Shown: in pieces, positions 7,628 through 53,240 of the stretch
Position numbering within the stretch: position 1 is the first letter of the stretch
How the letters are laid out: each line of letters begins with the position of its first letter
Program-made: the position numbers and the translations under genes
NCBI GenBank assembly: GCA_964567825.1
Contig: CAZMNX010000002.1
Location: 62,767-126,766, forward strand
DNA from: an uncultured Candidatus Saccharibacteria bacterium
Lineage (GTDB): Bacteria; Patescibacteriota; Minisyncoccia; Phycocordibacterales; GWA1-40-21
Direction of reading: 5' to 3'
DNA: 64,000 nucleotides
Notes under the pieces: model-generated
The model's database searches: none
What the model was told of the DNA's origin: nothing
The model's input: only the letters and a program-made list of their open reading frames with translations

Positions 7628-8612
7628 AAAGGTTGGTATATAAGCTTTTTTTATTTGGAAATGGTGACTTTTCAGCAAAAATAATAGCATCAATAACAGT
7701 TTTTTTAATATCATCTTCCATAGCAGTAATTTCCTCTTCGGAAACTCCTGAAGCCAGAGTTTCTCGTCTCATTCTGACTACTGAATCTTTCTCTTTTCGC
7801 TGTTCTACTGTATCTTCCTCACGAGTTTCCTCCTCAAAGGCTGGCCCACTGTGTGCCATGTGACGGTAGGTCATACATTCGATGAGGGCAGGTTTGCCCG
7901 CACGTACTTCGGTGATAAGATCTCTGGTTTTTATGACCACGTCGGAATAATCATTCCCATCAGCCTTTATATATCGTACTCCAAACCCAGCAACGATCCT
8001 TTCGGTATTGTGAGATACTGATCGCCGTTCCCAAAGACGGGTATTAATGGACCGAAGATTATTTTCAAGTACGATAAGTAACGGCAGCTTAAAAAGTGTT
8101 GCCAAATTTAAAGACTCGTAGATACCCCCCTCCTCAAATGCACCGTCGCCTAAGAAAACAACTGTTACCGAATCACTCTTGTGATAATTTTGTTCAAAGG
8201 CACTACCACAGGAAAGCGGTAAAGCACTTGAGAGAATTGGTGTTGAGCCAATAAAATTAACTGATTTATCAATCAAGTGCATTGATCCGCCCTTACCGTG
8301 TGACGAACCATATTCCTTTCCAAGCAACTCGCAGACCATTTTCTTGAGATCTCCTCCTTTAGCAAGATAGTGTCCGTGTGATCGATGATTTCCCATCACA
8401 CGGTCATCTTTGTGTAGCGCATCGCAGACACCTACAGCTACCGCTTCTTGACCAACATAAAAATGGACAAGACTCAATATCTTATTCTTAAGGTAATAAA
8501 AAGCTATTTGTTCCTCCGCTGTCCGAATAAGGAACATCTTTTTATAAGCGTCTAATAACATAGACTCAATTCTATTGAAAATGACACTTTTGTCAATCAA
8601 AATTGAACCCAA
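7620..8612 (-). CDS. 2-oxoacid dehydrogenase E1 component alpha subunit (TPP-dependent)
   Basis: TPP-binding GDGAFEEGG...LENN motif and YRHMAHSGPA E1-alpha signature. Confidence 0.85.
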   Translation of the reverse strand: MGSILIDKSVIFNRIESMLLDAYKKMFLIRTAEEQIAFYYLKNKILSLVHFYVGQEAVAVGVCDALHKDDRVMGNHRSHGHYLAKGGDLKKMVCELLGKEYGSSHGKGGSMHLIDKSVNFIGSTPILSSALPLSCGSAFEQNYHKSDSVTVVFLGDGAFEEGGIYESLNLATLFKLPLLIVLENNLRSINTRLWERRSVSHNTERIVAGFGVRYIKADGNDYSDVVIKTRDLITEVRAGKPALIECMTYRHMAHSGPAFEEETREEDTVEQRKEKDSVVRMRRETLASGVSEEEITAMEDDIKKTVIDAIIFAEKSPFPNKKSLYTNLYV

Positions 8613-8640
8613 CAGGCTGTATTTTTACTGGATTGTTTGA

Positions 8641-9156
8641 CTAACTTTTATCTTTAGCTAAATCCAAAACTTTACTTACAAACTCGCTTTTACCACTAAT
8701 ATAAACATCCTTTCCTGAAGGATCATTCTCTAGCAAATTTTCTTTTAATTTTTGATACTCGTCTCTAAAATCTGGGTGATTTCTCAAATAATCTCTAAAT
8801 ATAATCTGTCGTTCCCAAAAATTTCCTCTATCCTTATAAGCAATAGAAAGGTGAAATTTTGTAGGGTTACCTTTCCTGAATAAGTGCCTTTCTCCACTGG
8901 AATTTAATTTGTCATAAGAATATCCAAATTTCTCAAGTGGTTTAATAAAGGAATCTCCATCCTCTCTTTTTTCTATCAGAACAACAATGTCAATAATTGG
9001 TTTTGAAGATAATCCAGGAATAGAGGTGCTACCAATATGCTCAATGGCAATAGCCTTATTACCAAATATTTCTTGTAATTTACCTTTTTCTGTCTGAAAC
9101 TTATCTTGCCAGGATAGTTGATAAGAGACTAGGGTTGTATGTGATAAATCTGTCAT
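8641..9156 (-). CDS. GrpB-family (nucleotidyltransferase-fold) protein
   Basis: HIGSTSIPGLSSKPIIDIVVLIE matches the GrpB/UPF0157 signature. Confidence 0.7.
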   Translation of the reverse strand: MTDLSHTTLVSYQLSWQDKFQTEKGKLQEIFGNKAIAIEHIGSTSIPGLSSKPIIDIVVLIEKREDGDSFIKPLEKFGYSYDKLNSSGERHLFRKGNPTKFHLSIAYKDRGNFWERQIIFRDYLRNHPDFRDEYQKLKENLLENDPSGKDVYISGKSEFVSKVLDLAKDKS

Positions 9157-19402: not shown

Positions 19403-19834
19403 ATGAAGCTCATTAATCGGCGGTGGATAATCGCCCTAATGCTCGTGTTTGTGCTTGGTGGGGCCGGCTGCGAAGGTGAAGATGAGGATAGCTACAGCAG
19501 CAATCCGAGCTACAACGACCCGCCCTATCAAAACACGACGCGACGGATCCAAGTCCATGTGTTCAACGGCTCGTACGGTTACGTCGATCAGTTCGGCTTT
19601 TGGACCGGCATGGTCCTCGTCGAAATCGAGAAGGCGCCGTACGCCAACCTTCGGCCAGGTGAAAGCACCTACGTTCCGAAGGACCTGTACAGTCACGACG
19701 ATAAACTGGTCCTGCACTTCACAGAGCAGGCATCGGGTATGGTTTGGGAAGTCGCCTTCGGTGATCGCTATCAGTACTACAGCGTCACCCTGCACGGTGA
19801 CGGTCGTCCACCAACTCTCGAACCGCCACCCTGA
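19403..19834 (+). CDS. secreted/lipoprotein-like protein (143 aa), GC-rich cassette 2
   Basis: SD GAGAGAAAGG; signal peptide MKLINRRWIIALMLVFVLGGAGC with Cys at the cleavage region; mature part rich in Tyr/Asp/Pro; ~60% GC. Confidence 0.55.
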   Translation: MKLINRRWIIALMLVFVLGGAGCEGEDEDSYSSNPSYNDPPYQNTTRRIQVHVFNGSYGYVDQFGFWTGMVLVEIEKAPYANLRPGESTYVPKDLYSHDDKLVLHFTEQASGMVWEVAFGDRYQYYSVTLHGDGRPPTLEPPP

Positions 19835-19853
19835 ACCGGTGGCCGAGAAAAAA

Positions 19854-19883
19854 AGGCAAGCGAGTGTGACGCTTGCCTTTTTT
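19854..19883 (+). terminator. intrinsic terminator (AGGCAAGCG-agtgtga-CGCTTGCCT + T6)
   Basis: Perfect 9-bp stem followed by TTTTTT immediately after the cassette-2 stop codon. Confidence 0.7.
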
Positions 19884-19967
19884 AGCACATTTTTTATCTT
19901 CGTTTTTATCCACATTTGCTAAAAAAGTGAAAAGCGTGTAATACTAAAAGCCAAGCAAATAAATTTT

Positions 19968-22286: not shown

Positions 22287-22787
22287 ATGGAAAGATCAGT
22301 TGGGTTGATTGTGATGATTCAGATCCCGGACGAATCGGCATCTGGATATCACCTCGCTGCGGTTCTTCAGCGGCGTGGGACCTACAGCACAGAAAGAATG
22401 GCTCCGGCCTACTTTCCAGGTTGCCTACAGGTGACCTGTCACGGAAAGCTGGAAGAAGGTGAGGATCCGATCCCTGGCTTGCTCCGTGAGCTTGAGGAAG
22501 AATTGGGTCCCACCTTCATTCCGGGCGCCCTGCGCGAGGTAACGTTCACAAGTACTGAGAAGAAAGAGGTGACAACCTTTGCAACGTTCGTGCCGGCCAG
22601 AATGATCAGGAACATTCGGCTGGGACCAGACTCCGGCGGATTGGAGGTGATCCTAAAGGCGGCGGTCGAGGATATTGTGGAAATAACCCCGGCGTTTAAG
22701 GTGAAGGGACCAGAATTTCGTCACACCCTCGCCATGTTCGAAGACGAAATCAGATCGCTGAAGACGGCCTTCGAAATCCTCGGCTGA
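22287..22787 (+). CDS. NUDIX hydrolase, GC-rich cassette 3
   Basis: SD GGAGGTGG; Nudix box GKLEEGEDPIPGLLRELEEELG; ~60% GC; own promoter-like TTGACA at 22198 and terminator. Confidence 0.6.
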   Translation: MERSVGLIVMIQIPDESASGYHLAAVLQRRGTYSTERMAPAYFPGCLQVTCHGKLEEGEDPIPGLLRELEEELGPTFIPGALREVTFTSTEKKEVTTFATFVPARMIRNIRLGPDSGGLEVILKAAVEDIVEITPAFKVKGPEFRHTLAMFEDEIRSLKTAFEILG

Positions 22788-28277: not shown

Positions 28278-29279
28278 TCAACCCTTCACGCCGTAACCCA
28301 CCGACGGCTTCCCAAACTTGGGGAAGACCGGAATGAACTCCACCTCGCCCACACCGAGCGGGATGCTCACGGCACCATCTTGGTCCGTGCTCAACGTGAT
28401 CCAGTCATCGGTCTTGCCGACTCGATACTGAACTGCCACCGCTTTTTCGTTTTCGGTGGTGACCATCCGGATCTTGACCGTGAGCGCCTTGGTCAATTGC
28501 AGAATGACGAGCGGCACTTCCCCGTAGCCGTTCTGACTTTGGGGATTGACGAACACGTAGGTCGAGTTCGTCGGCGCCGTGATCATTCCGTTGACGCTGA
28601 AGTTCACGCCTGCGCTCACATTTTCGAGCGGAAGCTCCATCATCTGGTCGAGCGCGAAGATGAAGGTCCCCGACTGGCCCGTTGCCTGATCGTAGGTGTG
28701 CACCACCGTCTCGCCCGACTGACCAGTATACTGGGTTTCGAACCAGACGAGATCCTCGTCATAGCTCGTTTCCAGGTACGCGGGGGGTCCGACGATGTTG
28801 CCCTGCGCATCGCGACGGATGACGTTCGCGGAGGTGACGTTGTCGAAGGCGATTGGAATACGCCAGTACAGGTCGAGATGGGTGTTGAGCGCCCAGCTCG
28901 GTACCTGCCAACCAGTCGGGGTGTTTTCGAGACCCGTATAGTTGCCGCCCATGAAGAGCGGATACCCTTCCTCCGACAGGAGCGTGGTCATCACGCTCAC
29001 CTTGTCCACCGCGGGGTCAGCCACGATGAAGTTCACCGTGTTCGTCCGCAGCGACGCGGCCAAGCGATCGAAGTTGCCCTCCGCATCGTAGGCCATGTAG
29101 CTCGACATCATCACCCCACCGTCGGAGTTCACACTCGACATCGCACGCACGACCGATTGCCGGGCGTAGGCGATGAGGGCCGGCTTGCTTGTGCCGGGCC
29201 ACAGAAGATTCGTCGCGAGGCTCACCTTGGCCGCGAGGGCCAGGACCGTCATCACCATAACCACCTTGATCATCTTCAT
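28278..29279 (-). CDS. secreted protein of unknown function (333 aa), GC-rich cassette 4
   Basis: SD GAGGAAAA; signal peptide MKMIKVVMVMTVLALAAKVSLA. Terminator downstream. The overlapping 384-aa plus-strand ORF is rejected as an antisense shadow ORF. Confidence 0.55.
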   Translation of the reverse strand: MKMIKVVMVMTVLALAAKVSLATNLLWPGTSKPALIAYARQSVVRAMSSVNSDGGVMMSSYMAYDAEGNFDRLAASLRTNTVNFIVADPAVDKVSVMTTLLSEEGYPLFMGGNYTGLENTPTGWQVPSWALNTHLDLYWRIPIAFDNVTSANVIRRDAQGNIVGPPAYLETSYDEDLVWFETQYTGQSGETVVHTYDQATGQSGTFIFALDQMMELPLENVSAGVNFSVNGMITAPTNSTYVFVNPQSQNGYGEVPLVILQLTKALTVKIRMVTTENEKAVAVQYRVGKTDDWITLSTDQDGAVSIPLGVGEVEFIPVFPKFGKPSVGYGVKG

Positions 29280-29337
29280 CTGCTTTTTTCCTCTGCTCTT
29301 TCTTTCTGCATTTATGACTCTTACCGACTCGGACCGA

Positions 29338-29640
29338 TCACAGACTGAACTTCAAGTCCTCCATGTTCATCGTCACCATCGTTCCTTTGTTGCTGGTCGC
29401 CTTCTGGCTACCACCAACCTCCTCCTTCGCCCTCGGTGTCTCCACCGGCGGCGTGTTGGTCTCGGTCGTTTCGATCACTGCGGCCGGCACGGGCTTAACC
29501 CCCACCGATTCTGCCTTCACCGGCGGCGTTTCAGATCGCCGCAAGATGAATACGCAAAGAGCGACTGTCAACCCCAAGGTCAACAGCCACGCGAATGGAC
29601 CTGGTCCAGGCCGACGATCACGATCTTGAATGTTTGCCAT
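29338..29640 (-). CDS. membrane-anchored Pro/Thr-rich protein (100 aa), GC-rich cassette 4
   Basis: SD AGGAGAG 7 nt before ATG; cytoplasmic basic N-terminus, one TM (FAWLLTLGLTVALCVFIL), Pro-rich tail; first gene of a three-gene minus-strand unit. Confidence 0.4.
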   Translation of the reverse strand: MANIQDRDRRPGPGPFAWLLTLGLTVALCVFILRRSETPPVKAESVGVKPVPAAVIETTETNTPPVETPRAKEEVGGSQKATSNKGTMVTMNMEDLKFSL

Positions 29641-31364: not shown

Positions 31365-31736
31365 CTTTACTTCTTCTTTCTTTTCTTCGGCTTTTGGCGC
31401 TTCAGCCTTAGGGGCCTCGGCAGCCTTTTTTTCCTCTTCAGTTAGTTCTTTCTTGATTGGGCGTTTCTTTGGTAAAGCATTTACTTTTTTACCGGTAATA
31501 ATTTTCTTGGAAATTAAAAGGTTGCGCATAGTATCAGAAAGTTGAGCACCCTTTGAGATCCAATACTTCACGCGATCAGCGTCCACATTACTATTATTTT
31601 TGGCCTTGCGAGTATCGTGGTTTCCTAGGACCTCTAAAGTCTGGCCACTCTTTGGACCGCGCTTAGAATCCACTAAAACCACACGAAAAGTTGGTTCGTG
31701 CACTCGTCCTACGCGTTGTAATCGAATCATTAACAT
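31356..31736 (-). CDS. rpsP: 30S ribosomal protein S16 with Lys/Ala-rich C-terminal tail
   Basis: MIRLQRVGRVHEPTFRVVLVDSKRGPKSG matches the S16 N-terminal signature. Confidence 0.9.
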   Translation of the reverse strand: MLMIRLQRVGRVHEPTFRVVLVDSKRGPKSGQTLEVLGNHDTRKAKNNSNVDADRVKYWISKGAQLSDTMRNLLISKKIITGKKVNALPKKRPIKKELTEEEKKAAEAPKAEAPKAEEKKEEVKAA

Positions 31737-31773
31737 AGGTGGTATCTTAGCCTAGATTATAAAAATAGTCAAC

Positions 31774-32676
31774 TTAAATCCATTTGGATGAGTCCGGCAT
31801 CAAATCCCCATCTAACGAAAGAATATTCCTGGATTTAAGTTCCTCGACAAGAAGTAAAAAGTTATTATTGTACTTCGGCATATGGGCAACGCCTGAGCCA
31901 AGGGTGTCTGAATACAGCTCGAAATTAAATGAGGAGGACATGCTTCTAATAAAGGCCAGGAAAGAATCGGCCTTGGAAGACAAGATAAATTTAATTACCC
32001 TCATATTTGTTGCAAAGTGTCCGGTTAAAATTATCTCCTTAATACCGTCAAGATTCTTGACCCAGGCGTTATTCATGACACTCTCAATCTCCGGCCCGAC
32101 GTTTGATTTATCCGACTCTAGGGATCCAATATATAAACAATAAAGCTCCTTAACTCCTTGGGTCTTTAAAAAATCCTCAGCCTTCTTTTCAATTGAGCCG
32201 GTAATACGTAAATCATCTATAAATATTACTCTTTTGCCCTTCAAGAGATCTGGAATACTATACAAATGTATATCATCATTCTGTGAAAATCGACTAACTT
32301 TATCAAGTGTACCATAATCCCCCTCAACTAATGTATCATTAAATATTGGCAAAATAGGAATTGGCATTTTACCCAAAAGATCAAGATGATTATTAATTGT
32401 AGTTTGAAAATACTTTGCGATCACCGCTGCACCCTTCGGCACATGTTTATATGGAGCAGTTACAATAACAAAATCTGTTTGATTTTCTGACTCAAGGAAC
32501 AGACTACCGTAGGTTTTTATAAACAACCTAGCCAAATCAACCCCGTATTGAGCGCCGACAATCGTATCACCATACTTAAATCGACTGTATAGTTTTATAT
32601 CAAAAATAGAGCCGTTGATAGTCTGAATGTCGCTGGCAATTACCTTTATTGGATATAGTGATAAATTTTTTTTCAT
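31774..32676 (-). CDS. phosphoribosyltransferase (PRTase)-like domain protein, paralog 1
   Basis: PRPP-binding-like motif GKRVIFIDDLRITGS; paralogous to 33370-34281 (shared YSRFKYG, VIVTAPY/LVLTTSPY, GKxVIxxDDxRITG, PEIExxMN blocks). Confidence 0.55.
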   Translation of the reverse strand: MKKNLSLYPIKVIASDIQTINGSIFDIKLYSRFKYGDTIVGAQYGVDLARLFIKTYGSLFLESENQTDFVIVTAPYKHVPKGAAVIAKYFQTTINNHLDLLGKMPIPILPIFNDTLVEGDYGTLDKVSRFSQNDDIHLYSIPDLLKGKRVIFIDDLRITGSIEKKAEDFLKTQGVKELYCLYIGSLESDKSNVGPEIESVMNNAWVKNLDGIKEIILTGHFATNMRVIKFILSSKADSFLAFIRSMSSSFNFELYSDTLGSGVAHMPKYNNNFLLLVEELKSRNILSLDGDLMPDSSKWI

Positions 32677-33365
32677 TAGATTAATTTAATCAAATCAGAA
32701 ATTCTACTAATAGATTTTACGTCGTTACCTGAATTTGCACTGTCGATGTCAAACAATTGAGCCTGACATCCAGCTTCAATTGCCCCGCGATAATCCGTGA
32801 CAAAATTATTACCAACATGTAATATCTCCCCGGCTTTAATTCCGGCAATTTGTGCTAATGACTCAAACATTCTCGGGTCGGGTTTTCCCGCACCTACTTC
32901 ATCTGAAAATACAGTGTAATCAATAATGTCTAAAAGACCCAAACTCGAAAGCGCATTTCTCATTGTTTTTCCAATAATAAAGCCCGTATTACTCAGTAGA
33001 GCAATCTTGAACTTTTTTGCTTTAATTTCTTTTAAAGTCTCCGGCAAATCCTTCTCGATTAATAGTGGCAGATTCTCTAGAAAAACTGATTCGAAGATAC
33101 TCTTCACTTTATTAATAATCTCCAAATTAGCCTTTTTGCCTGTTAAGCGCTCAATCAAGGTAATTATTCGAACGTCACCAGATAAATCCTGGCCAGTTGT
33201 TTCGGTAATTGTTTCTAGTTCTCGGCCAATGTCCCTGGCGGCATTAGCAATTAACTTTTCATCTAGACTTAATAGTTCTGATAAAAGTTTTGATCTTTTT
33301 ATTTTATTCTCAGGATTACCAACTAAAATAGTGTCCCAGACGTCTAAACTTATAAGTTTAATCAT
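32676..33365 (-). CDS. HAD-superfamily hydrolase (phosphatase)
   Basis: Motif I LDVWDT (DxDx[TV]), motif IV GNNFVTDYRGAIEAGCQA (GDxxxD-like), Rossmannoid layout. Confidence 0.7.
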   Translation of the reverse strand: MIKLISLDVWDTILVGNPENKIKRSKLLSELLSLDEKLIANAARDIGRELETITETTGQDLSGDVRIITLIERLTGKKANLEIINKVKSIFESVFLENLPLLIEKDLPETLKEIKAKKFKIALLSNTGFIIGKTMRNALSSLGLLDIIDYTVFSDEVGAGKPDPRMFESLAQIAGIKAGEILHVGNNFVTDYRGAIEAGCQAQLFDIDSANSGNDVKSISRISDLIKLI

Positions 33366-33369
33366 AATT

Positions 33370-34281
33370 TTAAAAGAAAATAGAAACAGCCGCTTGCCGT
33401 AATAAGAAAGTAAATTGCGAAAATCTTGAAGCTAGGCTAATCTTATTTTCTCTCAACTTTATTTCGTCACGAACCAATGAAAAACCGGCTTGATATTTAT
33501 CCATAAAGCCATAGCCATCATTCACAGATGAAATATAAAGATCAGACAAAACATCGTCGGATATCTTTTTTAGGAAGCTTTTAAGTTCTAGCAAATTACC
33601 CCAAGAGAGAACGAAGCGGCAAACTCGAGCGTTTAAAATATATTCCTCAGGATTTCTCATCAAAGCTGAGAGTCGATCGAGGGAATTAATCTTGGTATGA
33701 TTCATTTTATTTTCAATCTCTGGATCTTTTTTACCAGTTTTAACATCAATTACATAAAGAAAAATTATTTCGGCAACGCCAGATTTTTCCAAATAACTAA
33801 TTGTCTTTTTTTCATGAGCACCAGTAATTCTCGAGTCTTCCACAAGAATAACAGTCTTGCCCTTAACCGAATCTTGATCAACAGAAAGAGAATCTTTCTT
33901 CATATTTATTTCTCGCTCTTTAGCACTCAGTTTTCCAAAGTCACAGGACGGAGCTGATGAACGATTAATTTTTACAAACGGTAAGGCGTTATGGCCACTC
34001 TCTAAAAGCAATTCGTTCAGGAAATAGTGAACATTAACCGCCAATGAGTGAGCTGAGGGTGGAGTATGCCAATATGGTGAAGTTGTTAAAACTAAATTAT
34101 CTTTATTTAAAGTAAGATTTTTAAAAGAGTAAACTTTTAAAAATTCCGCAGCCATCTTTTTTGCAAACTTAATAACCGTTGGCTTGTAACCATACTTAAA
34201 AGTGCTATATTCCTCGAGGTTTAAAAACTCTTTCTTTGTTGATTTATCGAGGGTATAAGCTGAAATTCGTTTGATATTCAT
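33370..34281 (-). CDS. phosphoribosyltransferase (PRTase)-like domain protein, paralog 2
   Basis: GKTVILVEDSRITGAHEKK PRTase motif; first gene downstream of the promoter at 34332-34359. Confidence 0.55.
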   Translation of the reverse strand: MNIKRISAYTLDKSTKKEFLNLEEYSTFKYGYKPTVIKFAKKMAAEFLKVYSFKNLTLNKDNLVLTTSPYWHTPPSAHSLAVNVHYFLNELLLESGHNALPFVKINRSSAPSCDFGKLSAKEREINMKKDSLSVDQDSVKGKTVILVEDSRITGAHEKKTISYLEKSGVAEIIFLYVIDVKTGKKDPEIENKMNHTKINSLDRLSALMRNPEEYILNARVCRFVLSWGNLLELKSFLKKISDDVLSDLYISSVNDGYGFMDKYQAGFSLVRDEIKLRENKISLASRFSQFTFLLRQAAVSIFF

Positions 34282-34331
34282 TATTATTCTGCTACTAGTA
34301 AATCCGTTAAAATCTGGACTTAATGCTGGGT

Positions 34332-34359
34332 ATTATAGCAAATCTATTGGATTTGTCAA
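34332..34359 (-). promoter_or_regulatory. sigma70-type promoter TTGACA-N16-TATAAT (extended -10 TGcTATAAT) driving the PRTase-HAD-PRTase operon; copy A of a duplicated 33-nt element
   Basis: Minus strand cTTGACAaatccaatagatttgcTATAATaccc. The plus-strand 33-mer GGGTATTATAGCAAATCTATTGGATTTGTCAAG (34328-34360) recurs with 2 mismatches at 39497-39529. Confidence 0.6.
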
Positions 34360-34390
34360 GCCTAAATTGACACAATATGGAAATTTAGGC
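34360..34390. promoter_or_regulatory. perfect 9-bp inverted repeat GCCTAAATT-N13-AATTTAGGC abutting the -35 of the promoter above (candidate regulator binding site)
   Basis: Inverted repeat lies immediately upstream (on minus strand) of the -35 hexamer; not followed by a U-tract so unlikely to be a terminator. Confidence 0.35.
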
Positions 34391-34497
34391 AAATAAAGAG
34401 ACCCCCGACCCTCACCGAAACTTGCGTTCAGATGAGAGAAGGGGGCCTCGGGGTTGAATGTACTCTTCCCAGCCTCAGGCTGGGGGTTGGGGCTCGG

Positions 34498-35298
34498 TTA
34501 GGCCACCGCCGGAGCGGGGGCCGCATTGAGCCACTTCACGAGCTCGTCGCCGATGAGCTCCGCATTGAGCTCGTCGTCGGGCTTGCTGGTGAAGGCCGGC
34601 AGGTCGCGAATGATGACCAGGCCGGTATTGTCGAACATGTCGGCGATCTTCTGCAGGAACTTGAACTGGCCGCCCTGGTTCGAGTACGCCAGGAAGAGGA
34701 AGTAGACCTCGTCCCCCCGGCCCTGACTCGCGCGGAGCACCTGCTCCACCCGACCCTCGTCGCTGCAGTCACCGTCGGTGACAAACAGAACCAAGGAGCG
34801 TTCCTTCTTGACCGCCGCCGGCGCCGACGCCGACTGCTGATTCCCGCCACCACCGAAGGTACGGGAGAAGAATCCGCTCTTCCTGGGCGCCGCCGGCTGA
34901 TTGCCGTTCGGCAGCCAGCCGAAGTGACGCAGGTTGGCTTCCAGCACATAGCTGTAGTCCGTCCCGCCGCGGTAGCCCGGCACCTTCTCGATGATTTCGC
35001 GCTTGATGTAGCCCTCAACGTTCGCCGGAGTCACCGTCCCGACATGGTGAACGCGCTGTTCACCGTTCGAGAAGGTGAAGACGTCGATCTCGCCGTTGGC
35101 GTCGAACGTGATCCCCCACGGGATCAGGCGCGTCATCAGATCGTTCGTCATCCCGTCACGATGCTCGTCATCGAACGAGCCGGACACGTCCATGTCCATC
35201 ACGACTTGGGCGCGCAGCCGGCTCAGATCCACACCGAGCTTCGTCAACGTCAAACGCAGACTTTCCGCGGACTTCTGAATGTTCAACTTGATGGCCAT
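34498..35298 (-). CDS. von Willebrand factor A domain protein (TerY-like)
   Basis: MIDAS DMDVSGS and downstream VLFVTDGD vWA motifs; SD AAGGAGTG; GC-rich; 2-nt gap to upstream gene (operon). Confidence 0.65.
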   Translation of the reverse strand: MAIKLNIQKSAESLRLTLTKLGVDLSRLRAQVVMDMDVSGSFDDEHRDGMTNDLMTRLIPWGITFDANGEIDVFTFSNGEQRVHHVGTVTPANVEGYIKREIIEKVPGYRGGTDYSYVLEANLRHFGWLPNGNQPAAPRKSGFFSRTFGGGGNQQSASAPAAVKKERSLVLFVTDGDCSDEGRVEQVLRASQGRGDEVYFLFLAYSNQGGQFKFLQKIADMFDNTGLVIIRDLPAFTSKPDDELNAELIGDELVKWLNAAPAPAVA

Positions 35299-35300
35299 GG

Positions 35301-36389
35301 TTAGGCACTCCTTAATTTTCCGATCACTGCACTGACTAGGTCACCCACCTCACTGACTTGGGTGACACTTGGTTTGTTTCCTCTCCGAGCCAAAAGCTGC
35401 AAAGCAGCCAGGCTGTTGAGCATGGTCGGCACCGTTACCAGTGCCAAGTCTTGCGCAACTTCAATGAGTTGAAGAGGTTGTTCGATTTGTAACTTACGGA
35501 CCGAACTACCGCCGACAATCTCAGCCGTCGTAGCTGTGAGACTCACCACCCGCCCCGAAAGGCGACCAGCAACGTCTCGCTTCCCAATTGATTCCAGGTG
35601 TTCAGCGATGTGCGCGCCAGCCAAAGCCAACGCATTAACCTCATCACCAACCTCTAGGGTGCGGGTCGAGATCAACTCGATTTGCCCCCTCAAGGCCAGC
35701 AACTTCGGAACATCATCACTGATGATCTTCGCAATCTGATCAATCTCCTCTAGTGCCCTTTCGAGCTCTTCGAGTGAATCGACCTCTGCTGAAGATTTCT
35801 TGATCGCTCGAGCGAGGAAACCCTCCCCACCTTTTTGAGCGAACACCTTGTCCAGCTTGATGGAACCTAGGATCTCGATCAGGCGTCCGACACGTCGGCT
35901 AACCTGATTAAGTGTCTCGGAACGCGACAAAGCGAGGACCTCCGACATCAGCCCGCTGTACTGCTTTTGCACTTCCGTGCCCCACATCACAGCGCTCTGC
36001 TCCGTAGCCCTTTCCGCAATGAAGCTTTCGACCAAGTGCACCACGCGCTCGATCGTTTCCACCTTCTGGGTTTTCCCCTGCAAATTGGCACTGGTGATCG
36101 GAATCCTCTTCCGAACTTCACCGATCCCAATCACAGAGGGTTTACCTACCGGCACGATTGCCGGCTTGACCACCGCCTGAACCGTATTCGACGGTATCGC
36201 GGTTGGTTTCAAGTTTTCCACCTTCCCCGGCGTTCCAGGAATGGCGGTCGGCTTGGTGGCCTGCCCTTGCGGACAAACTCCCATCACCGTAGGCTTGATG
36301 GACCCGCCGCCCGACGGAATAACCGTCGGACGACGAATCACTGTTGCTTCTCCCGGCACGAAGCCGGAAGTTTTCTCTCCTCCCGGCAC
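35301..36389 (-). CDS. coiled-coil protein, TelA-like / toxic-anion-resistance-associated (tentative)
   Basis: GTG start with strong SD AAGGAGG; Pro/Thr-rich N-terminus followed by long helical repeats; sits between TerD and the vWA gene. Confidence 0.4.
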   Translation of the reverse strand: MPGGEKTSGFVPGEATVIRRPTVIPSGGGSIKPTVMGVCPQGQATKPTAIPGTPGKVENLKPTAIPSNTVQAVVKPAIVPVGKPSVIGIGEVRKRIPITSANLQGKTQKVETIERVVHLVESFIAERATEQSAVMWGTEVQKQYSGLMSEVLALSRSETLNQVSRRVGRLIEILGSIKLDKVFAQKGGEGFLARAIKKSSAEVDSLEELERALEEIDQIAKIISDDVPKLLALRGQIELISTRTLEVGDEVNALALAGAHIAEHLESIGKRDVAGRLSGRVVSLTATTAEIVGGSSVRKLQIEQPLQLIEVAQDLALVTVPTMLNSLAALQLLARRGNKPSVTQVSEVGDLVSAVIGKLRSA

Positions 36390-36424
36390 TGATGCCTCCT
36401 TTTGTTGGCGTCGTTCTCAGACGC

Positions 36425-37042
36425 TTAAGAGAAGAAGCCGAGGATCGTGTTGAAATCCCCGACGAAACCGCTGCCGACGGCCGCGTAATCCCAGCCGCCC
36501 GTGGCGTTGCGGATCATGCTGCCCATCTGCACGCAGTTGAATGCTCCGAACTCATTCGTGAGCCCGAAGCTGCCGAGAACCTTCCCGGCTTCGTCCTTGA
36601 TCGTAATCGAGGCCTCCTTGACCTCGGTGAACGTGACATTGCGACCCGACTTGTCGTAGATCGTGACGAAGATCGGGATCTCGTTGACTTCCGGCGCAAC
36701 CCGCGACGTGTCAATCGTGATCACTTCATCGACGCCCTGGGACCGACCGTCGCGCTTGTCGCCGGAGTGAAGCAGAGCCCCACACGGCGTACCAAACGAA
36801 CCGTCGGCATTGCGCTTCAAAGCGCCGCCCACCGTGTTCAGGTTGAAAACGCTGAGCACCTTTTCGAGCGTATCGATCTTGGCGCCGCTGCCGTCATTGA
36901 CGCACAGCAACGCATTGGCATCGAGATCGTGGGGCGAATCCCAGGCCAACTCGGCCATGAACTTCCCACCCTTCGACAGGTTGAGGGACAACTTCATCCC
37001 CGCAACCCCATCCTTCTTCAACGGCAAGGACAACTTACTCAT
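36425..37042 (-). CDS. terD: TerD-family stress protein
   Basis: LSLNLSKGGKF...AWDSPHDLDANALL...GALLHSGDKRDG...DEVITID...PIFVTIYD...GGWDYAAVGSG match TerD/TerZ/TerE signatures. The start is likely the ATG at 37042 (SD GGAGAAG), not the ORF-track start at 37105. Confidence 0.8.
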   Translation of the reverse strand: MSKLSLPLKKDGVAGMKLSLNLSKGGKFMAELAWDSPHDLDANALLCVNDGSGAKIDTLEKVLSVFNLNTVGGALKRNADGSFGTPCGALLHSGDKRDGRSQGVDEVITIDTSRVAPEVNEIPIFVTIYDKSGRNVTFTEVKEASITIKDEAGKVLGSFGLTNEFGAFNCVQMGSMIRNATGGWDYAAVGSGFVGDFNTILGFFS

Positions 37043-37121
37043 GACTGCTTCTCCATTTCTGCCTCTCGGCATCGAACTTGCAGCCCTTAACGGGCCGCCG
37101 AACATTTACCACACACAATCA

Positions 37122-38363
37122 TCACAACTGCGCAACTTCCGGCTGACTGGCCGAAAGCTCTGCCAAAACCGCGCGCGCCTTTTGAAAGCGCCCTTTGGCC
37201 TCGGCAAACTTCTTCTGCGTCTCCGCCCTTGCGAGCGAAACCGCTTGATGGATTTCCTCCGTCTCGCGAATGATGCCTTCGATCTGCGCGACTTGCGCCA
37301 GGCGATTCTCGCCCGGTGCCACCGCAGCTGTGACCGACGCATCACGTACGATTTGGCCGCGCGCCCGAATCAAGGTCTGATCCAGACTAGCGGCACTCGA
37401 CGAAAGATTCTGCAGGCTCTTCACCCGCAGGGCGGAATTTACGCTGAGCAGGGTCATCTTGATACTGGCGAAGCGGCTCGAGGCCGTCGTCAAGGTCTCA
37501 CCCAGCGTCGAAACGCCGGCGACCTGAATATCGCGAATGACTTGCTGATCAGCCGGCAACCGCGTGTACACACCCTCCAAGGCCAGTGCCCGGCTCTGAA
37601 GGAACTGGAGTTTGATGTCCAGCTCTTCGATTTCCGAACGAGCCTCAAGGCTGGTGTTTCCACTCAGCGCCTGCTTCCGCTCAGCCACCTGCTGCGTCGC
37701 CTTGGCCACGAAGGCCTCGGCTACCGCCGCAATGAGAGCGAAGTTCTGCCAGTGCACCCGATAGGCCTGCTTCAGCTGTTCGACATTCTGAAGTTCCGCA
37801 ATCAAGCGGGTCACCTCATCCTGCAGTTCAGCCTGAAGCCTGGCCAATTCCTCCGAGAGATCCTTGGTCTTCCCGGAGAGACGGACACGCACTTTTTCGA
37901 GCGTTTCCTGAAGCAGGGTCGCGGGGCTTTTCCCATTAAGCCGGCCGATCAGGCGATTGCCCAAACTCGGCTTGGCCTTCTGGGCCTCCTCGATAATCCC
38001 CTCCAGGTCGGCATCCTTGACTTCCTTCTGCAGGCGGTCAAAGAGCGCAAAAACGGACGCTGCCGTGTTCTTGTCCAGTTTGGCCAAGAAGCCGTCGAGC
38101 GTGGTATTCAAACCAGCCTCGGCCTCCGAACCCAACAGGACAATCTCCTGCCCGTGCATGGTCAGAATGTTCAAACTGGCGAGCATTTGCCCTGCCGGCT
38201 TGAGCTGTTCCTCCGAGATGACAATGGTGCCACCCGAAAAAGGAACTGCTGACGACGCACGAACGAGAGATGTAGATCCAGCCTCGACCACTTCCACCGG
38301 CGCCGTCGTAACGGCACCGAGAACGGTCGGCTTAAAACCCACATTTACTGTCATATAATTCAC
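37122..38363 (-). CDS. TelA-like toxic anion resistance protein (coiled-coil)
   Basis: 413-aa all-helical protein with TelA-like size and heptad repeats, in a TerC-TelA-TerD arrangement resembling known Ter operons; start GTG 38363 or ATG 38354 after SD AGGAGTG. Confidence 0.5.
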   Translation of the reverse strand: MNYMTVNVGFKPTVLGAVTTAPVEVVEAGSTSLVRASSAVPFSGGTIVISEEQLKPAGQMLASLNILTMHGQEIVLLGSEAEAGLNTTLDGFLAKLDKNTAASVFALFDRLQKEVKDADLEGIIEEAQKAKPSLGNRLIGRLNGKSPATLLQETLEKVRVRLSGKTKDLSEELARLQAELQDEVTRLIAELQNVEQLKQAYRVHWQNFALIAAVAEAFVAKATQQVAERKQALSGNTSLEARSEIEELDIKLQFLQSRALALEGVYTRLPADQQVIRDIQVAGVSTLGETLTTASSRFASIKMTLLSVNSALRVKSLQNLSSSAASLDQTLIRARGQIVRDASVTAAVAPGENRLAQVAQIEGIIRETEEIHQAVSLARAETQKKFAEAKGRFQKARAVLAELSASQPEVAQL

Positions 38364-38558
38364 ACTCCTAACTTTTATCTCGCTATTTACTTGTCAAAGG
38401 ACCACAGATCTTGTCTTTTTCCTATGACTCCTCTGCCAAGTATCGTTCGCTTTCACAAGCAAAACCACAATACCTGGGTAGAGGAGGCAAGATTCACCGA
38501 CTTGCCTCAGGAAAATTTCGGGGAGCTTACGCTCCGTTGTTGATGTCAATCGGGTTAG

Positions 38559-39425
38559 TTAGAGTGCCGTCGTCGAGCGCAAATCGCGCAAGGCAACGAA
38601 CAGCTTACGCGCGCCACGAGCCGACATAGTCAGCGGCAGCAGCACGTAGTACAGGACGCGATCCAGGACCTCAAGAATTCGGACACCAACCTTGACGGCG
38701 GGCCCGAGAACTTTTTGGACGATGGTCAATTCACTGTACGCGATGCTTGTCGCGGTGATGATCAGAATGCCGATCATCTTTTGCCAGCTTTCGATCTGGC
38801 AGTGTACACCGCACATTTCGAAACCGAGCTCGGTCAGCAGGATCAGTCCCACGAAACCCACCAGCATGAACGCTGTGTATTTGAGCACGGGGAACCGCTC
38901 GATCAGGCGGATGCAAATTCCCGCCACGAACCGCAGCGCCAAGATGCCGATGAAGACACCGGTGCAGATAACCCACAGACGTTTGTCCAGGGCCACGGCT
39001 GCCACGACGTTATCAATCGACAGCGAGAGATCCATGATCTCGATCTGGATGATCGTGAGCAGGAACCCCTTAACCAGCTTCTTGCCGGTCACACCGTCGA
39101 TCTCTTCTTCGGTCTTCTTGGTCAGATGCTCCGCCGCGAGGTAGAGCAAATAGGCCGCGCCGACGAGCTTCAACCAGTAATTCTGGCTGATGTACGCTGC
39201 CAGTCCGAGACAGATGCCCCGGAAAAGGTACGCGCCGATGATCCCATACCGCAAGGCTTTCTTCTGCTGATGTTTCGGCAAAGCCGAAGCCATGGCCGCG
39301 ATGGCCATAGCGTTATCGACCGAGAGCAAGCCCTCGATGATAATCAGCGAAAAGATGATCGGCAGGGCCGAAACCAACTCAGCCTGACCCGGAATATGGG
39401 CCAAAATGGCATTGATCAGATTCAA
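38559..39425 (-). CDS. terC: TerC-family integral membrane protein
   Basis: TTG start preceded by SD AAGAGGA. Duplicated LSVDNAMAIAAMA and LSIDNVVAAVALD TerC motifs. Several TM segments (about 7). Confidence 0.85.
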   Translation of the reverse strand: MNLINAILAHIPGQAELVSALPIIFSLIIIEGLLSVDNAMAIAAMASALPKHQQKKALRYGIIGAYLFRGICLGLAAYISQNYWLKLVGAAYLLYLAAEHLTKKTEEEIDGVTGKKLVKGFLLTIIQIEIMDLSLSIDNVVAAVALDKRLWVICTGVFIGILALRFVAGICIRLIERFPVLKYTAFMLVGFVGLILLTELGFEMCGVHCQIESWQKMIGILIITATSIAYSELTIVQKVLGPAVKVGVRILEVLDRVLYYVLLPLTMSARGARKLFVALRDLRSTTAL

Positions 39426-39499
39426 GCTTTCCTCTTTCTACCGTTGTTTTGCAACGGATTTTAGACACACAACAATGTCAACTTCACTTTCTAACGGGT

Positions 39500-39527
39500 A
39501 TTATAGCAAATCTATTGCGTTTGTCAA
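39500..39527 (-). promoter_or_regulatory. sigma70-type promoter TTGACA-N16-TATAAT driving terC; copy B of the duplicated 33-nt element
   Basis: Minus strand cTTGACAaacgcaatagatttgcTATAATaccc; the ~75-nt 5'UTR contains hairpin CCGTTG-caaaa-CAACGG before the SD. Confidence 0.65.
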
Positions 39528-39560
39528 GTATAATAGTGACAAAGGAGAAATGTGGGTTAT

Positions 39561-39594
39561 AAAAAAAACGTCTCGCGGGTGGGCCCGCGAGACG
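39561..39594 (-). terminator. intrinsic terminator (CGTCTCGCGGG-ccca-CCCGCGAGACG + T8 on minus strand)
   Basis: Perfect 11-bp stem followed by TTTTTTTT, 28 nt after the DUF4342 stop and just upstream of the terC promoter. Confidence 0.75.
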
Positions 39595-39622
39595 ACAGAA
39601 GCCAGAAGAGCGACGCGGGTCG

Positions 39623-39877
39623 TTACTTCTTCTTCTCAACCGAGATGGTGCAGTCACCGGTGACTGCGACCAGAGCACCGACCGCCGACAGCACCGGCGC
39701 CAAGAGCACACCGGCCATGCCCGCGTAGAGCGGGAAGGTGGCGACCACCTTGCGCGCGCCGTTGCGAACCACCACCTTGCGGACGTTGCCCTCACGAATA
39801 AGATTCCGCAGCGCTTCGAGCGCTTCGGCACCCCGCTTCGTGATTTCCTCAACCACCGTTTTCTTCTTACTCGGCAT
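39623..39877 (-). CDS. DUF4342-like small protein (84 aa)
   Basis: EGNVRKVVVRNGARKVVATFPLYAGMAGVLLAPVLSAVGALVAV resembles the DUF4342 pattern (NVRRLIIR...LEIPLTAG..AGG.L.LFAPVLAALGA); SD GGAAAGGGAAAG. Confidence 0.55.
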   Translation of the reverse strand: MPSKKKTVVEEITKRGAEALEALRNLIREGNVRKVVVRNGARKVVATFPLYAGMAGVLLAPVLSAVGALVAVTGDCTISVEKKK

Positions 39878-39949
39878 CTTTCCCTTTCCAGACCGCTGTT
39901 TAGATCAAGCCCCATGCCTAATCGACAACAGTCTAAGACCAAACTGGTA

Positions 39950-39981
39950 TTATTATAAGCACAATTATTTTAAAAAGTCAA
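39950..39981 (-). promoter_or_regulatory. sigma70-type promoter (TTGACT-N18-TATAAT) for the DUF4342 gene at the right edge of the GC-rich Ter island
   Basis: Minus strand gTTGACTttttaaaataattgtgcTTATAATaatacc. Confidence 0.5.
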
Positions 39982-44877: not shown

Positions 44878-45001
44878 ATTGCTATAAATTCTAACATAAA
44901 TTTAAAAGAATGGTATTTGACCAAAATCAAATTTTTAGGTAAAGTATTACTAGATCAGTTCGGGTTGAAGAACTCTTAACCCCTTGAGAAGGAAACGTTA
45001 A

Positions 45002-45448
45002 ATGAACGTAACTTTGACAGCAGAGATTGTACACGGAGTAAATGCCCTGGCGCCTCTTGTCGCCGTGGTTCATGAGGTGAATGCACCGGACGGGCTCTTG
45101 CTCGATCACGGCTTCTACCTCGAATTCGGACATGCGGTCCCCCAGGGACTGCACTACGAATTGGAGCTGACCGACCCGACGATCTGGACACATGCCCATC
45201 GGGACATGATCCATCATCGCCAGTCGACACTCAACGAACGTCGCTTCGTGTGCTATCCATTGCCAATGCCAACTCGGGCCAAGGCACGAGACGTCTTCAC
45301 CATCTGGGCGCTGGGAACGGCGTTCACGATGATGCACGGGAAAGACTTCCAGCTAATTCACACCGGCGATAATCTCGCTTTCATGAGAATCATGAGCAAG
45401 ACCTATCACCTGAACGTCGCACACGTTCGTTTCTCCGATCTTCCTTAA
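45002..45448 (+). CDS. hypothetical His-rich protein (148 aa), GC-rich cassette 6
   Basis: Promoter-like TTGACC-N17-TAAAGT at 44917-44945; SD GAAGGAAA; ~60% GC; terminator downstream; plus strand preferred over the overlapping minus ORF because of SD/promoter/terminator geometry. Confidence 0.45.
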   Translation: MNVTLTAEIVHGVNALAPLVAVVHEVNAPDGLLLDHGFYLEFGHAVPQGLHYELELTDPTIWTHAHRDMIHHRQSTLNERRFVCYPLPMPTRAKARDVFTIWALGTAFTMMHGKDFQLIHTGDNLAFMRIMSKTYHLNVAHVRFSDLP

Positions 45449-46206: not shown

Positions 46207-46626
46207 TATTTTTTTTAATTAAGAATTATTAAATTAGTTCTCTATTCTGCACTATTTTCGTCAAAATAGCAAGACTCTTAGCTATTAGGTTAAGCCAAAT
46301 TATTTTCAGGCCTGAAATAGCCTTATATTACAACACCTATTGACTTATCCCCAGTCAATCCTTGACGGGTCTTGATACCTCTGTAGTATTAATAATATGA
46401 ATAGAAAATATTCACAGCTTAATAAGAACTGGAACACCGACTGCGTCGGCTTTATTGCCATGTCAGTCCATAATCCATTTTTGTTTAGCCGTGATATTTT
46501 TAGAAGCTCGCGCAGAGCATAAAAATCTCCCCCTCTGATTTTAGAAGGATCTCGGCTAAACGAAAGCCGAGATTCTTTCGTATAGCAGTTCTTTGACAAA
46601 CCAAAATCTCAAATGGAGTAAGACAG

Positions 46627-47825
46627 TGAAAGCGAAAAAAATCGTAGCGGCCTATTACCTCATCTCGGCCCTGACAAGTGGCAGTATGGGGTTCATCATG
46701 GGAGTTTACAGCAACTTCCTACGGTCCGGTGGTCTTGATGAATTCTGGGTCAACACGGTGAACGTCATTTATTTTATGACGATCACTCTCTGTGAAATTC
46801 CGACTGGCCTTTTTGCCGACATCTTCGGCCGAAAGAATTCAATCGTTATTTCCTGTCTCTTGGAGGCAGTGTCCTGTGGTGTCTACGGTCTGTCCAGAGG
46901 TTTCGGTGGTTTTGCGATCGCTGAAACAATTGGCGCCGTTGGCCGAACTTTCGCCAGCGGAGCATTCGATGCTTGGTTGGTGGACAGTCTAAAAGCTAAC
47001 GGCGAAGATCACAACATAAAAAAGATCTTCGCCAAACGCAGTTTAATTTCACGAATGGCGGTGATCGCAACGGCCCTAGCGGGAGGCTGGCTTGGCGACA
47101 AAGGACTTAATCTACCCTTCTTCATGAGCAGCTTACTGTTCTTGATTACGGGTTTGATTGTCCTACTTGTTATGAAGGAAAAAAACTTTGTGAGACAAAA
47201 GTTTTCTCTCAAAGCGGGTTTGGTAGAAATGAAACAGACCTGGCAGAAAAGCCTAACCTTCGCCAAGAAGGATTTGAACTTTCGCTTTGTTCTCATTATT
47301 AGCGGGGTGCAAACATTTGCGATGATGGCCCCGAATATGGAATGGCAAAAGCTCTTTTCCAACCTTGGCTTCAGTAACTCGCACAATGGCATCATTGCCG
47401 GAGTAATCAACATAACACTAATGGCTGGAGCGGTGCTGTCGAGCCGGATTGACTGGCTAATAAAGGAAGAAAAAAACCAGATGGTTTGGTCTCAGGTGTT
47501 AATCGGTCTGTGTGTGATCTTGACCGCCACCTGCCATCAAATTTATCCGGTAGTAACTTTCTTCTTACTCCATGAGCTCTGTCGCGGAATGGCTGATCCA
47601 ATCATGGACTCATACGTTCAAAAATGCATCGTCTCACCTAAGGAGAGAGCGACTCTTTCTTCCTTTGGTTCGATGATCAAGCATTTTGGCGGCGCTTTGG
47701 GATTATTGGTCTCCGGTTTGATCGCTAAACTGGCCGGCATAAACGCCGCCTGGATAGTGTCCGGATCGCTCATGATCATTGCTAGCCTTTGGGTAGCAAA
47801 AAATCACGCGCAAAAATCAAAGTAG
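46627..47825 (+). CDS. MFS transporter
   Basis: 12-TM layout with MFS motif GLFADIFGRKNS. The start is likely GTG 46627 (SD GGAGT 8 nt upstream) rather than the ORF-track TTG at 46593. Confidence 0.8.
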
Positions 47826-52604: not shown

Positions 52605-53240
52605 TTAATCCATGAACTGAATCGGGCAATTTCCGCGACCCATCATGGCCTGCTGGCTGTGCGGATTCCGGAGAATCTCTCCGTACCGGCGCTGCACCGG
52701 CTCGAACTGTCTCGCCAGATGCTTCAGCACCCGGAAGAGAACGGCCCGATGAAAAGGCTGTCCGCGCTCGAGCATCCGCTGCCAGAGCTCGCCTGCCTCC
52801 ACAAACTCCGGAACACCCAAGAGCTCATCACCCTTTTCCCACTTCGGCTGCTTGCGCAGGCGCGAGAGACTCTCCGGGCTCAGCTTCATAACGAACACGC
52901 ACTTGTCGTGCCATTCCGCCTCCTTGTCGGCATCGCCAGGGACCCGACTCACCAGGGACGGCAGCGGTTCGCCAGCTGCATCGCGCGGACCGAGCGCTTG
53001 AATGTCGAAACCCTCCGGATTGTCCGGGGTCTCGCACAACTCACGCACGACACCGTTAGCCGCCGTCATCCAGCGGGTCTCGCCCGGTTCTCCGCCCTCC
53101 GTCGGGAATTTCCACGAACTGAATGGCTGACGGCCCGGACGATGCTTCGTATACACGAAAGCGATCATTTCGATCTCGCCGGGATTCTTACCCTTACGGA
53201 TGACCACCATGGTGGCCGCATGACTGATCTTCTCGCTCAT
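52605..53240 (-). CDS. NUDIX-like fold protein (degenerate Nudix box), GC-rich cassette 7
   Basis: WKFPTEGGEPGETRWMTAANGVVRELCE resembles W.FPGG.E.GE...AA.RE..EE with an insertion; SD GGAG 7 nt before ATG; ~62% GC; plus-strand overlapping ORF rejected. Confidence 0.4.
   Translation of the reverse strand: MSEKISHAATMVVIRKGKNPGEIEMIAFVYTKHRPGRQPFSSWKFPTEGGEPGETRWMTAANGVVRELCETPDNPEGFDIQALGPRDAAGEPLPSLVSRVPGDADKEAEWHDKCVFVMKLSPESLSRLRKQPKWEKGDELLGVPEFVEAGELWQRMLERGQPFHRAVLFRVLKHLARQFEPVQRRYGEILRNPHSQQAMMGRGNCPIQFMD

Follow-up and report, generated by a model that had tools for sequence, protein, structure and literature searches.

Do two neighbouring operons of very different base composition, one of ter-type stress genes and one encoding two phosphoribosyltransferases (PRTases) and a HAD phosphatase, form a single system in the genome of an uncultured Candidatus Saccharibacteria bacterium? 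Both lie between 31.7 and 39.9 kb of a 64,000-nucleotide (nt) stretch of contig CAZMNX010000002.1, which we call the window. An earlier note, made from the letters of the window alone, had described a ter cluster coupled to the PRTase operon by a duplicated promoter. In our view the locus is likely to be a Ter-type system for responding to envelope stress, xenobiotics or phage, built of two transcription units with one promoter sequence. It is not a new system, as the kind was already described in 2012, and it recurs in metagenome-assembled genomes (MAGs) of Saccharibacteria, Uhrbacteria and Nomurabacteria.

Gene families and transcription units

The open reading frame (ORF) list holds nine genes in this part of the window, all on the minus strand, to which the gene, promoter and terminator coordinates below refer; every one of the nine ORFs placed here by the earlier note is present. 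The ter block starts with a TerC family membrane protein of the YkoY/MeeY subtype (38559..39425; 288 amino acids, aa; TTG start), which matches PF03741 (6e-48, 163 bits) and passes the NCBIfam YkoY model TIGR03716 (202 bits, above the 138.5 cutoff); its GC content at third codon positions (GC3) is 0.76. The TerD domain protein (36425..37042; GC3 0.81) matches PF02342 at 75.6 bits against a cutoff of 25.3 (4.5e-21). Both family assignments in the earlier note therefore stand above curated profile thresholds, with the correction that TerD is most likely 205 aa long, as called in independent assemblies, and not 206 aa. The block ends with a vWA protein (34498..35298; 266 aa; GC3 0.85) that has the metal-ion-dependent adhesion site (MIDAS)-like motif DMDVSGS. 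This protein had been called TerY-like and is actually of the TerF-C-terminal type, based on its match to PF10138 (8.3e-20).

Two helical proteins, earlier described as TelA-like coiled coils, complete the ter block. The 413-aa protein (37122..38363; an alternative ATG start at 38354 may shorten it to 410 aa) is an all-helical coiled-coil protein that anchors a conserved four-gene core. It has no Pfam match, and a few of its 167 detected homologues (45-59% identity, mostly Burkholderiales and other Pseudomonadota) carry TelA (PF05816). Its AlphaFold2 (AF2) model (predicted local distance difference test, pLDDT, 69) consists of long helical hairpins, and the best named fold matches are phage proteins, including Caulobacter phage proteins, with names such as 'tellurite resistance protein', 'toxic anion resistance protein (TelA)' and 'TelA-like protein' (E 1e-5 to 5e-3; template modelling score, TM, 0.3-0.46). 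The second, weakly TelA-like paralogue (35301..36389; 362 aa) is also a member of the four-gene core. Weak TelA matches occur in 9/22 members of the 362-aa family (best 2.2e-6) and in 2/21 of the 413-aa family, and the two family profiles align with each other by hhalign at 81% probability (E 1.2e-5). Sequence relatives in the PDB were uninformative for the three uncharacterised families.

Downstream of the ter block is the PRTase operon. It encodes PRTase_3 paralogue 1 (PRT1; 33370..34281; 303 aa; GC3 0.30), a HAD-superfamily phosphatase of the REG-2-like subfamily IA (32676..33365; 229 aa; PF00702 2.7e-16; TIGR02252 2.4e-20, under the cutoff of that model) and PRTase_3 paralogue 2 (PRT2; 31774..32676; 300 aa). 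PRT1 and PRT2 match PF15610 at 119.9 bits (1.6e-34) and 147.2 bits (7.7e-43), against a cutoff of 28.7, and are 30% identical to each other, which bears out the description of paralogous PRTases on either side of a HAD phosphatase. Their phosphoribosyl pyrophosphate (PRPP) loops are intact (VILVEDSRITGAHE in PRT1, VIFIDDLRITGSIE in PRT2), and the family-invariant residues D155, G160 and E163 are all kept in both.

The two operons have a 38-nt direct repeat in common, present in exactly two copies (34328-34365 and 39496-39533) that are identical at 34/38 positions. A 32-nt core of this repeat gave 2 matches in the window and 0 in 100 shuffles. Both copies have a TTGACA box, a 16-nt spacer and TGcTATAAT, with the TG of an extended -10 element; no other site between 31.3 and 40.2 kb fits the sigma-70 consensus at 12/12 positions. 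Based on repeat and consensus matches, copy 1 is the terC promoter (TTGACAAACGCAATAGATTTGCTATAAT; core 39500-39527), 102 nt upstream of terC, and copy 2 is the PRTase-operon promoter (TTGACAAATCCAATAGATTTGCTATAAT; core 34332-34359), 78 nt upstream of PRT1. The two promoters match at 26/28 positions, and the likeness stops there: upstream sequence and leaders differ. The duplicated promoter of the earlier note is thus real.

A long hairpin followed by UUUAUUU (34389..34449; minimum free energy -49.5 kcal/mol, z = -3.0) sits between the vWA gene and the second promoter, and is probably the intrinsic terminator of the terC-vWA operon. On the other side of terC is the gene for a DUF4342 protein (39623..39877; 84 aa; PF14242 2.8e-18; GC3 0.78), which has its own promoter-like site (TTGACT-18-TATAAT, 11/12; 39952..39981) and its own strong intrinsic terminator (39569..39594; an 11-bp stem with 9 GC pairs, then T8), separating it from terC. 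Taken together, these terminators and promoters divide the locus into three units: DUF4342, terC to vWA, and PRTase-HAD-PRTase. The latter two have one promoter sequence in common. DUF4342 is a neighbour and not a demonstrated component of the system; no homologue was found in any other locus searched with DUF4342. The earlier note was therefore right about the family of this protein but not about its membership in the cluster.

Other features of the noncoding sequence concern single promoters or gaps. An inverted repeat, CAAATC-N5-GATTTG, lies within the spacer of copy 2; it is perfect in the PRTase copy only, with none in the promoters of a related Saccharibacteria locus (L064), and might conceivably be an operator. 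In both leaders, Rfam searches found nothing at the gathering score or with E values up to 5, not even the yybP-ykoY Mn riboswitch, a frequent leader element of YkoY-type TerC genes, and shuffled sequences fold as well as the terC leader. For lack of an Rfam match, control of terC by a Mn riboswitch was rejected. TerC and the 413-aa gene are 195 nt apart, and this gap contains an 8-bp perfect stem (GAGGCAAG / CTTGCCTC; 38484-38508) with a 9-nt loop and without a U-tract, which may be an intra-operon element for processing or stabilisation. The stop codon of PRT2 is followed after 37 nt (31736-31774), without a terminator-like hairpin, by the start of rpsP (S16), and then by genes for a KH-domain protein and an alanine racemase; transcription from the PRTase promoter may read through into these housekeeping genes.

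By Pfam, none of the nine locus proteins belongs to the ATP-grasp, TIM-barrel lyase or TerB families, and the flanks consist of housekeeping genes. No kinase or PP2C gene, the partners in a TerY-P triad, was found among the locus proteins by Pfam either. Three plus-strand ORFs (34432-35304, 36344-37090 and 36810-38252) were rejected as genes; they are antisense shadows of conserved GC-rich ter genes, and their matches in other loci are likewise antisense to conserved genes.

Linkage of PRTase_3 and ter genes across genomes

Genes for PRTase_3 and HAD stand beside TerC and the core at five loci of the candidate phyla radiation (CPR), the window and four others, in three arrangements. The window has TerC-TelA-TerD-X-vWA, where X is the 362-aa protein, with PRT1-HAD-PRT2 downstream on the same strand. 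In L064 the PRTase genes are upstream on the same strand, giving PRT1-HAD-PRT2-TerC-TelA-TerD-X-vWA, and this upstream, same-strand order is found again in L069, with a truncated HAD fused to PRT1, and in L090, with HAD fused to PRT2. In the fifth locus (L049) a HAD-PRTase fusion is divergent from TerC. The order of units in the window is thus reversed, a circular permutation of the commoner PRTase-first layout. A YkoY-type TerC (57-63% identity) is common specifically to the PRTase-bearing CPR loci, and one gene flanking the window locus is 52% identical to an L064 gene. Outside CPR, Pedobacter polaris (L008) has TerC-HAD-PRTase_3-TerD-TerD-TelA, and a further genome (L094) has TerC-HAD-PRTase_3 ... 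TelA ... TerD. The search for PRTase/HAD genes beside ter genes was therefore positive in each of these genomes, and PRTase_3 adjoins Ter genes at every context examined. A linkage that is kept in different phyla and despite rearrangement supports a functional connection.

Fusion proteins lead to the same view of the PRTase-HAD-PRTase trio. The best match, P0122 (L007, 66-2591), is a single 841-aa chain of PRTase_3-HAD-PRTase_3, in the gene order of the window; the N-terminal domain has 51% identity to PRT1, and the C-terminal one can be aligned with PRT2. PRT1 is 51-52% identical to its relatives in L064, L069 and this fusion protein, and two other proteins (P0125, P0126) are HAD-PRTase_3 fusions. 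Fusion in matching order marks the trio as an old functional unit, and the triple fusion suggests that the three proteins act together in fixed proportions. The HAD is fused differently from genome to genome, as a truncated tail on PRT1 in L069 (4548-5753) and as HAD-PRT2 in L090 (4775-6514) and L049 (about 7100-8690, minus strand). With PRT2 as the sole query, a word-indexed search recovered just PRT2 itself, and a search of the viral collection for relatives of the PRT1 type found none.

From the ter side, we scanned one genome per species with the 413-aa family and obtained 80 loci, nearly all of which keep the order TelA-like, TerD, TelA-like-2, vWA. Carriers of this four-gene core belong mostly to the Alpha-, Beta- and Gammaproteobacteria and the Chloroflexi. 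Among these species-representative genomes, it is a Saccharibacteria MAG (L009) that encodes the nearest relative of the window 413-aa protein (55%); further carriers within CPR are L064 and L069 (Saccharibacteria), L049 (Uhrbacteria) and L077 (Nomurabacteria). The core is also found on conjugative Sphingobium, Novosphingobium and Agrobacterium plasmids, with two of the four genes annotated as hypothetical, and remoter relatives (34-37% identity) occur on jumbo-phage-size viral contigs of 80-345 kb. One such plasmid is the conjugative (MOBQ/MPF_T) pSYA3-1 of Sphingobium yanoikuyae (L089; NZ_CP060124.1, 23997-27594), whose core reads hypothetical / TerD family / hypothetical / VWA in RefSeq, so that both TelA-like members are unannotated in public records.

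Base composition and rival readings

The GC-rich ter cassette beside a low-GC, host-like PRTase operon is as the earlier note had it: GC3 is 0.61-0.85 in the ter genes and DUF4342, 0.30-0.37 in the PRTase/HAD genes, and 0.38-0.41 in the flanking rpsP, KH, alr and RNase R genes. This contrast is the first of several observations that would fit a recently acquired foreign island from a GC-rich donor, sitting by chance beside an unrelated resident PRTase/HAD operon. In such a case, adjacency and promoter repeat would be by-products of insertion, for example of a circular cassette recombining at a promoter, and the 38-nt direct repeats do flank exactly the terC-vWA block. The occurrence of the core on conjugative plasmids of Sphingobium, Novosphingobium and Agrobacterium and on jumbo-phage-size viral contigs, and several other small GC-rich cassettes in the window, would also suit this origin. 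However, the nearest relatives of the block are 51-59% identical in protein, so that no recent donor is visible, and no integrase or transposase was found by ORFs and Pfam within or beside the block; the flanking repeats are promoters. The adjacency is also not a one-off, since the linkage of PRTase genes to TerC and core recurs in L064, L069 and L090 together with the GC split, and the YkoY-type TerC specific to PRTase-bearing CPR loci speaks against chance as well. Finally, the Ter proteins of low-GC hosts are modestly shifted to AT-codon amino acids relative to their orthologues in GC-rich hosts, which implies long residence rather than recent arrival. We therefore regard a recent island as unlikely.

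The small GC-rich cassettes number at least six in the window (19403-19922, 22287-22787, 28278-29640, 44927-45448, 46593-47825 and 52605-53240), with GC3 of 0.55-0.81 on a background of about 0.3-0.4. Among the proteins they encode are an MFS transporter, a NUDIX protein and another that is weakly NUDIX-like; several more have no Pfam match, such as those of 333 aa and 100 aa at 28.3-29.6 kb. Foreign-looking composition makes up about 14% of the window.

The GC split itself extends well beyond the window. In L064 and L069, GC3 is 0.21-0.33 in the PRTase genes and 0.48-0.79 in the adjoining TerC-to-vWA block, and windowed GC in L090 is 0.31-0.33 in the PRTase genes versus 0.43-0.56 in the block. 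The rank order of the ter genes by GC3 is identical in L064, L069 and the window. Where the host is GC-rich, module and flanks agree in composition; in every low-GC host examined, the module is 6-16 GC points above its flanks. Four low-GC MAGs labelled Gammaproteobacteria (L025, L061, L065, L076), with flank GC of 0.38-0.44 and no PRTase nearby, have a core 6-15 points richer, so the GC excess of the module in low-GC hosts is not limited to CPR. Four-fold degenerate sites at conserved residues are saturated between lineages of the L064, L069 and window type (0.23-0.49 identical, near random), and in a rough neighbour-joining tree the CPR sequences lie near the base of the main clade, nested in no proteobacterial group. 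Either the ter block has been repeatedly replaced from GC-rich sources at a fixed site, or a GC-rich state is maintained.

Within a genome, the two promoters resemble each other more than they resemble those of other genomes. Beside the 26/28 pair of the window, L069 has a near-identical pair (TTGACAAATTGATATATATAAGCTATAAT versus TTGACAAATTGCATATAATAAGCTATACT), and in L090 a 14-nt element, GTCTAACTAATATT, is common to both upstream regions; the L064 pair has little in common beyond TTGACAAAT. This likeness within genomes suggests gene conversion, or co-evolution with a lineage-specific regulator. We advance only tentatively, as a rather improbable general statement, that in low-GC genomes of the Saccharibacteria type the ter block stays GC-rich beyond synonymous saturation, separated by a few dozen nt from its obligate partner, a PRTase operon of fully host-like composition, while the promoters evolve in concert within genomes. 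If this is true, selection or biased gene conversion would hold one operon at a foreign composition, or the block would be repeatedly exchanged by homology from GC-rich donors, perhaps the hosts of the epibiont, docking at the shared promoter. The GC split and the promoter likeness are small but real puzzles on how transferred operons are domesticated in reduced genomes.

A different possibility is that PRTase-HAD-PRTase serves ordinary nucleotide salvage in a reduced genome, is co-transcribed with rpsP and is functionally unconnected with the ter genes. CPR bacteria rely on salvage, the composition of the PRTase/HAD genes matches the host, and only 37 nt without a terminator separate PRT2 from rpsP. 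The fold also agrees with type-I nucleobase PRTases: the AF2 model of PRT2 (pLDDT 87) has a type-I core resembling HGXPRT, APRT, ComF and PyrR, but at only 11-18% identity and with an additional C-terminal helical domain of about 100 aa that is absent in those enzymes and specific to the family. The profile of the PF15610 family matches solved structures weakly, over the PRPP loop (E about 0.01). Neither PRTase comes near the cutoff of the NCBIfam equivalog models Apt, Hpt, PyrE, ComF and PRPP synthase, the best salvage-model scores being 15.8 bits versus 224 for APRT, 12.5 versus 150 for HGPRT and 18.5 versus 115 for OPRT-like. The strong matches are instead to PF15610, a rare family (602 clusters at E <= 0.001 among 1.84 billion representatives) whose members adjoin Ter genes wherever context was examined. 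As judged from sequence and model, PRT1 and PRT2 thus appear not to be the salvage enzymes Apt, Hpt, Upp or PyrE, in agreement with the earlier note, and we think a salvage operon very improbable here.

An assembly or binning chimera of DNA from a GC-rich organism and a low-GC contig, which the sharp GC steps near 34.42 kb and 39.9 kb could have indicated, can be dismissed, because independent assemblies, from three samples in all, contain both junctions (vWA to PRTase in SRR12261225, SRR12261223 and JGI 3300059473; TerC-DUF4342-RNase R in a separate SRR12261225 contig), AT-rich host-type promoters lie within the GC-rich stretch, and the same mosaic is present in four unrelated assemblies of related organisms.

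Several points weigh against reading the locus as one Ter-type response system. The 362-aa protein scores 20.7 bits against TelA (PF05816), under the gathering cutoff of 30, and the 413-aa and 362-aa proteins are best described as divergent TelA-like proteins, based on sub-threshold matches and structural evidence, with neither over the Pfam threshold; this is as far as the earlier TelA-like assignment holds. In most genomes that carry the four-gene core, there is no PRTase gene within 10 kb; the core can therefore function independently of the biosynthetic unit. The surroundings of the locus contain no regulator gene, and the promoter identity could come from gene conversion instead of selection for co-regulation. 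PADLOC models gave no match to the locus except a weak ShosT PRTase similarity (4.7e-5). The product may differ from that of the larger enterobacterial ter loci, since ATP-grasp, TIM-lyase and TerB are absent. To our knowledge, no PRTase_3 has been connected by experiment with a product or with a Ter phenotype. We also considered a catalogued anti-phage defence system and rejected it, as no PADLOC model matched.

Proposed working and comparison with known systems

In the Ter-type response system that we favour, unit 1 (terC, the 413-aa TelA-like gene, terD, the 362-aa TelA-like gene and the TerF-type vWA gene) would provide the membrane and sub-membrane effector and sensor part, with TerC as a divalent-metal (Mn-type) transporter, TerD as a Ca2+ or ligand binder, and the helical and vWA proteins as scaffolds. 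Unit 2 (PRTase_3, HAD, PRTase_3) would be a small biosynthetic module, whose chemistry we infer from the literature: a PRTase would condense a base-like acceptor with PRPP, and the HAD phosphatase would then take off the 5'-phosphate, leaving a nucleoside-like product. The PRTase paralogues may use two acceptors, or may form a heterodimer. The product is proposed, again after the literature, to be a signal or ligand of the Ter proteins; it, or metal status sensed by TerD, would modulate a TerC-centred membrane complex on the TelA-like/vWA scaffold. Through their near-identical promoters, the two units would respond together, a co-regulation suggested by the common promoter and by published models.

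The locus lends clean comparative support to the long-standing proposal that Ter proteins work with a nucleoside-like molecule made by PRTase and HAD enzymes. That support rests on linkage through three rearrangements in CPR genomes and on a natural PRTase-HAD-PRTase fusion. An eight-gene system without ATP-grasp or lyase steps is a small, tractable target for product identification, and two widespread 'hypothetical' proteins of a plasmid- and chromosome-borne four-gene module now appear to be TelA-like. The locus can also serve as a minimal test case, comparatively well supported, for the metabolite hypothesis, and it illustrates how a compositional mosaic may persist within a single functional locus.

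The closest described system is the Ter system of 2012. As relayed in PMC7824862, citing Anantharaman et al. 2012, PRTase and HAD make a nucleoside or nucleotide derivative, TerD and TerB sense, TerC is in the membrane, and TelA and the TerF vWA form sub-membrane structures; the 'nucleoside-like metabolite' module is also mentioned second-hand in PMC8115787 and PMC4633105. The window locus agrees with it in having TerC, TerD, TelA-type and TerF-type vWA proteins beside PF15610 PRTases and a HAD phosphatase, and in the predicted roles of signal synthesis, sensor, membrane component and sub-membrane scaffold. Families, linkage and fusions all support the earlier note in reading the locus this way. 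The window locus differs in lacking TerB, the TerZ/A/E paralogue series, ATP-grasp and TIM-barrel lyase, and in having two distinct PRTase_3 paralogues either side of the HAD, two very divergent TelA-like proteins, and a split into two units under one duplicated promoter, all in a GC-mosaic within a low-GC, CPR-like genome. As the missing ATP-grasp, TIM-lyase and TerB of large enterobacterial loci are optional parts, the window version is a minimal one. It is therefore a minimal, compositionally chimeric instance as the earlier note said, though not unique to this genome, and permuted in order.

Outside CPR, the Pedobacter polaris locus (TerC-HAD-PRTase_3-TerD-TerD-TelA-DUF8226) likewise places TerC, one HAD and PRTase_3 directly beside TerD and TelA in one orientation, with 33% identity to PRT2 and 48% to TerC. 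Unlike the window, it has a single PRTase, two TerD proteins, a canonical Pfam TelA and no vWA, and it is one uniformly low-GC operon. The proteobacterial core, for example on pSYA3-1 of Sphingobium yanoikuyae, has the same four-gene order, with the 413-aa protein 45-49% identical, but no TerC or PRTase/HAD nearby, and in composition it is like its GC-rich host.

Abbreviated Ter operons of jumbo phages, consisting of TerD, TerC, TerF and TelA (PMC7824862), resemble the window locus in component set, and the 413-aa model matches phage TelA models; the window locus, in contrast, is chromosomal, among housekeeping genes and with no phage genes nearby. [quoted passage not shown] The window TerC passes the YkoY subfamily model of this group, but its gene has a leader without the yybP-ykoY riboswitch and lies inside a TerD/TelA/vWA operon.

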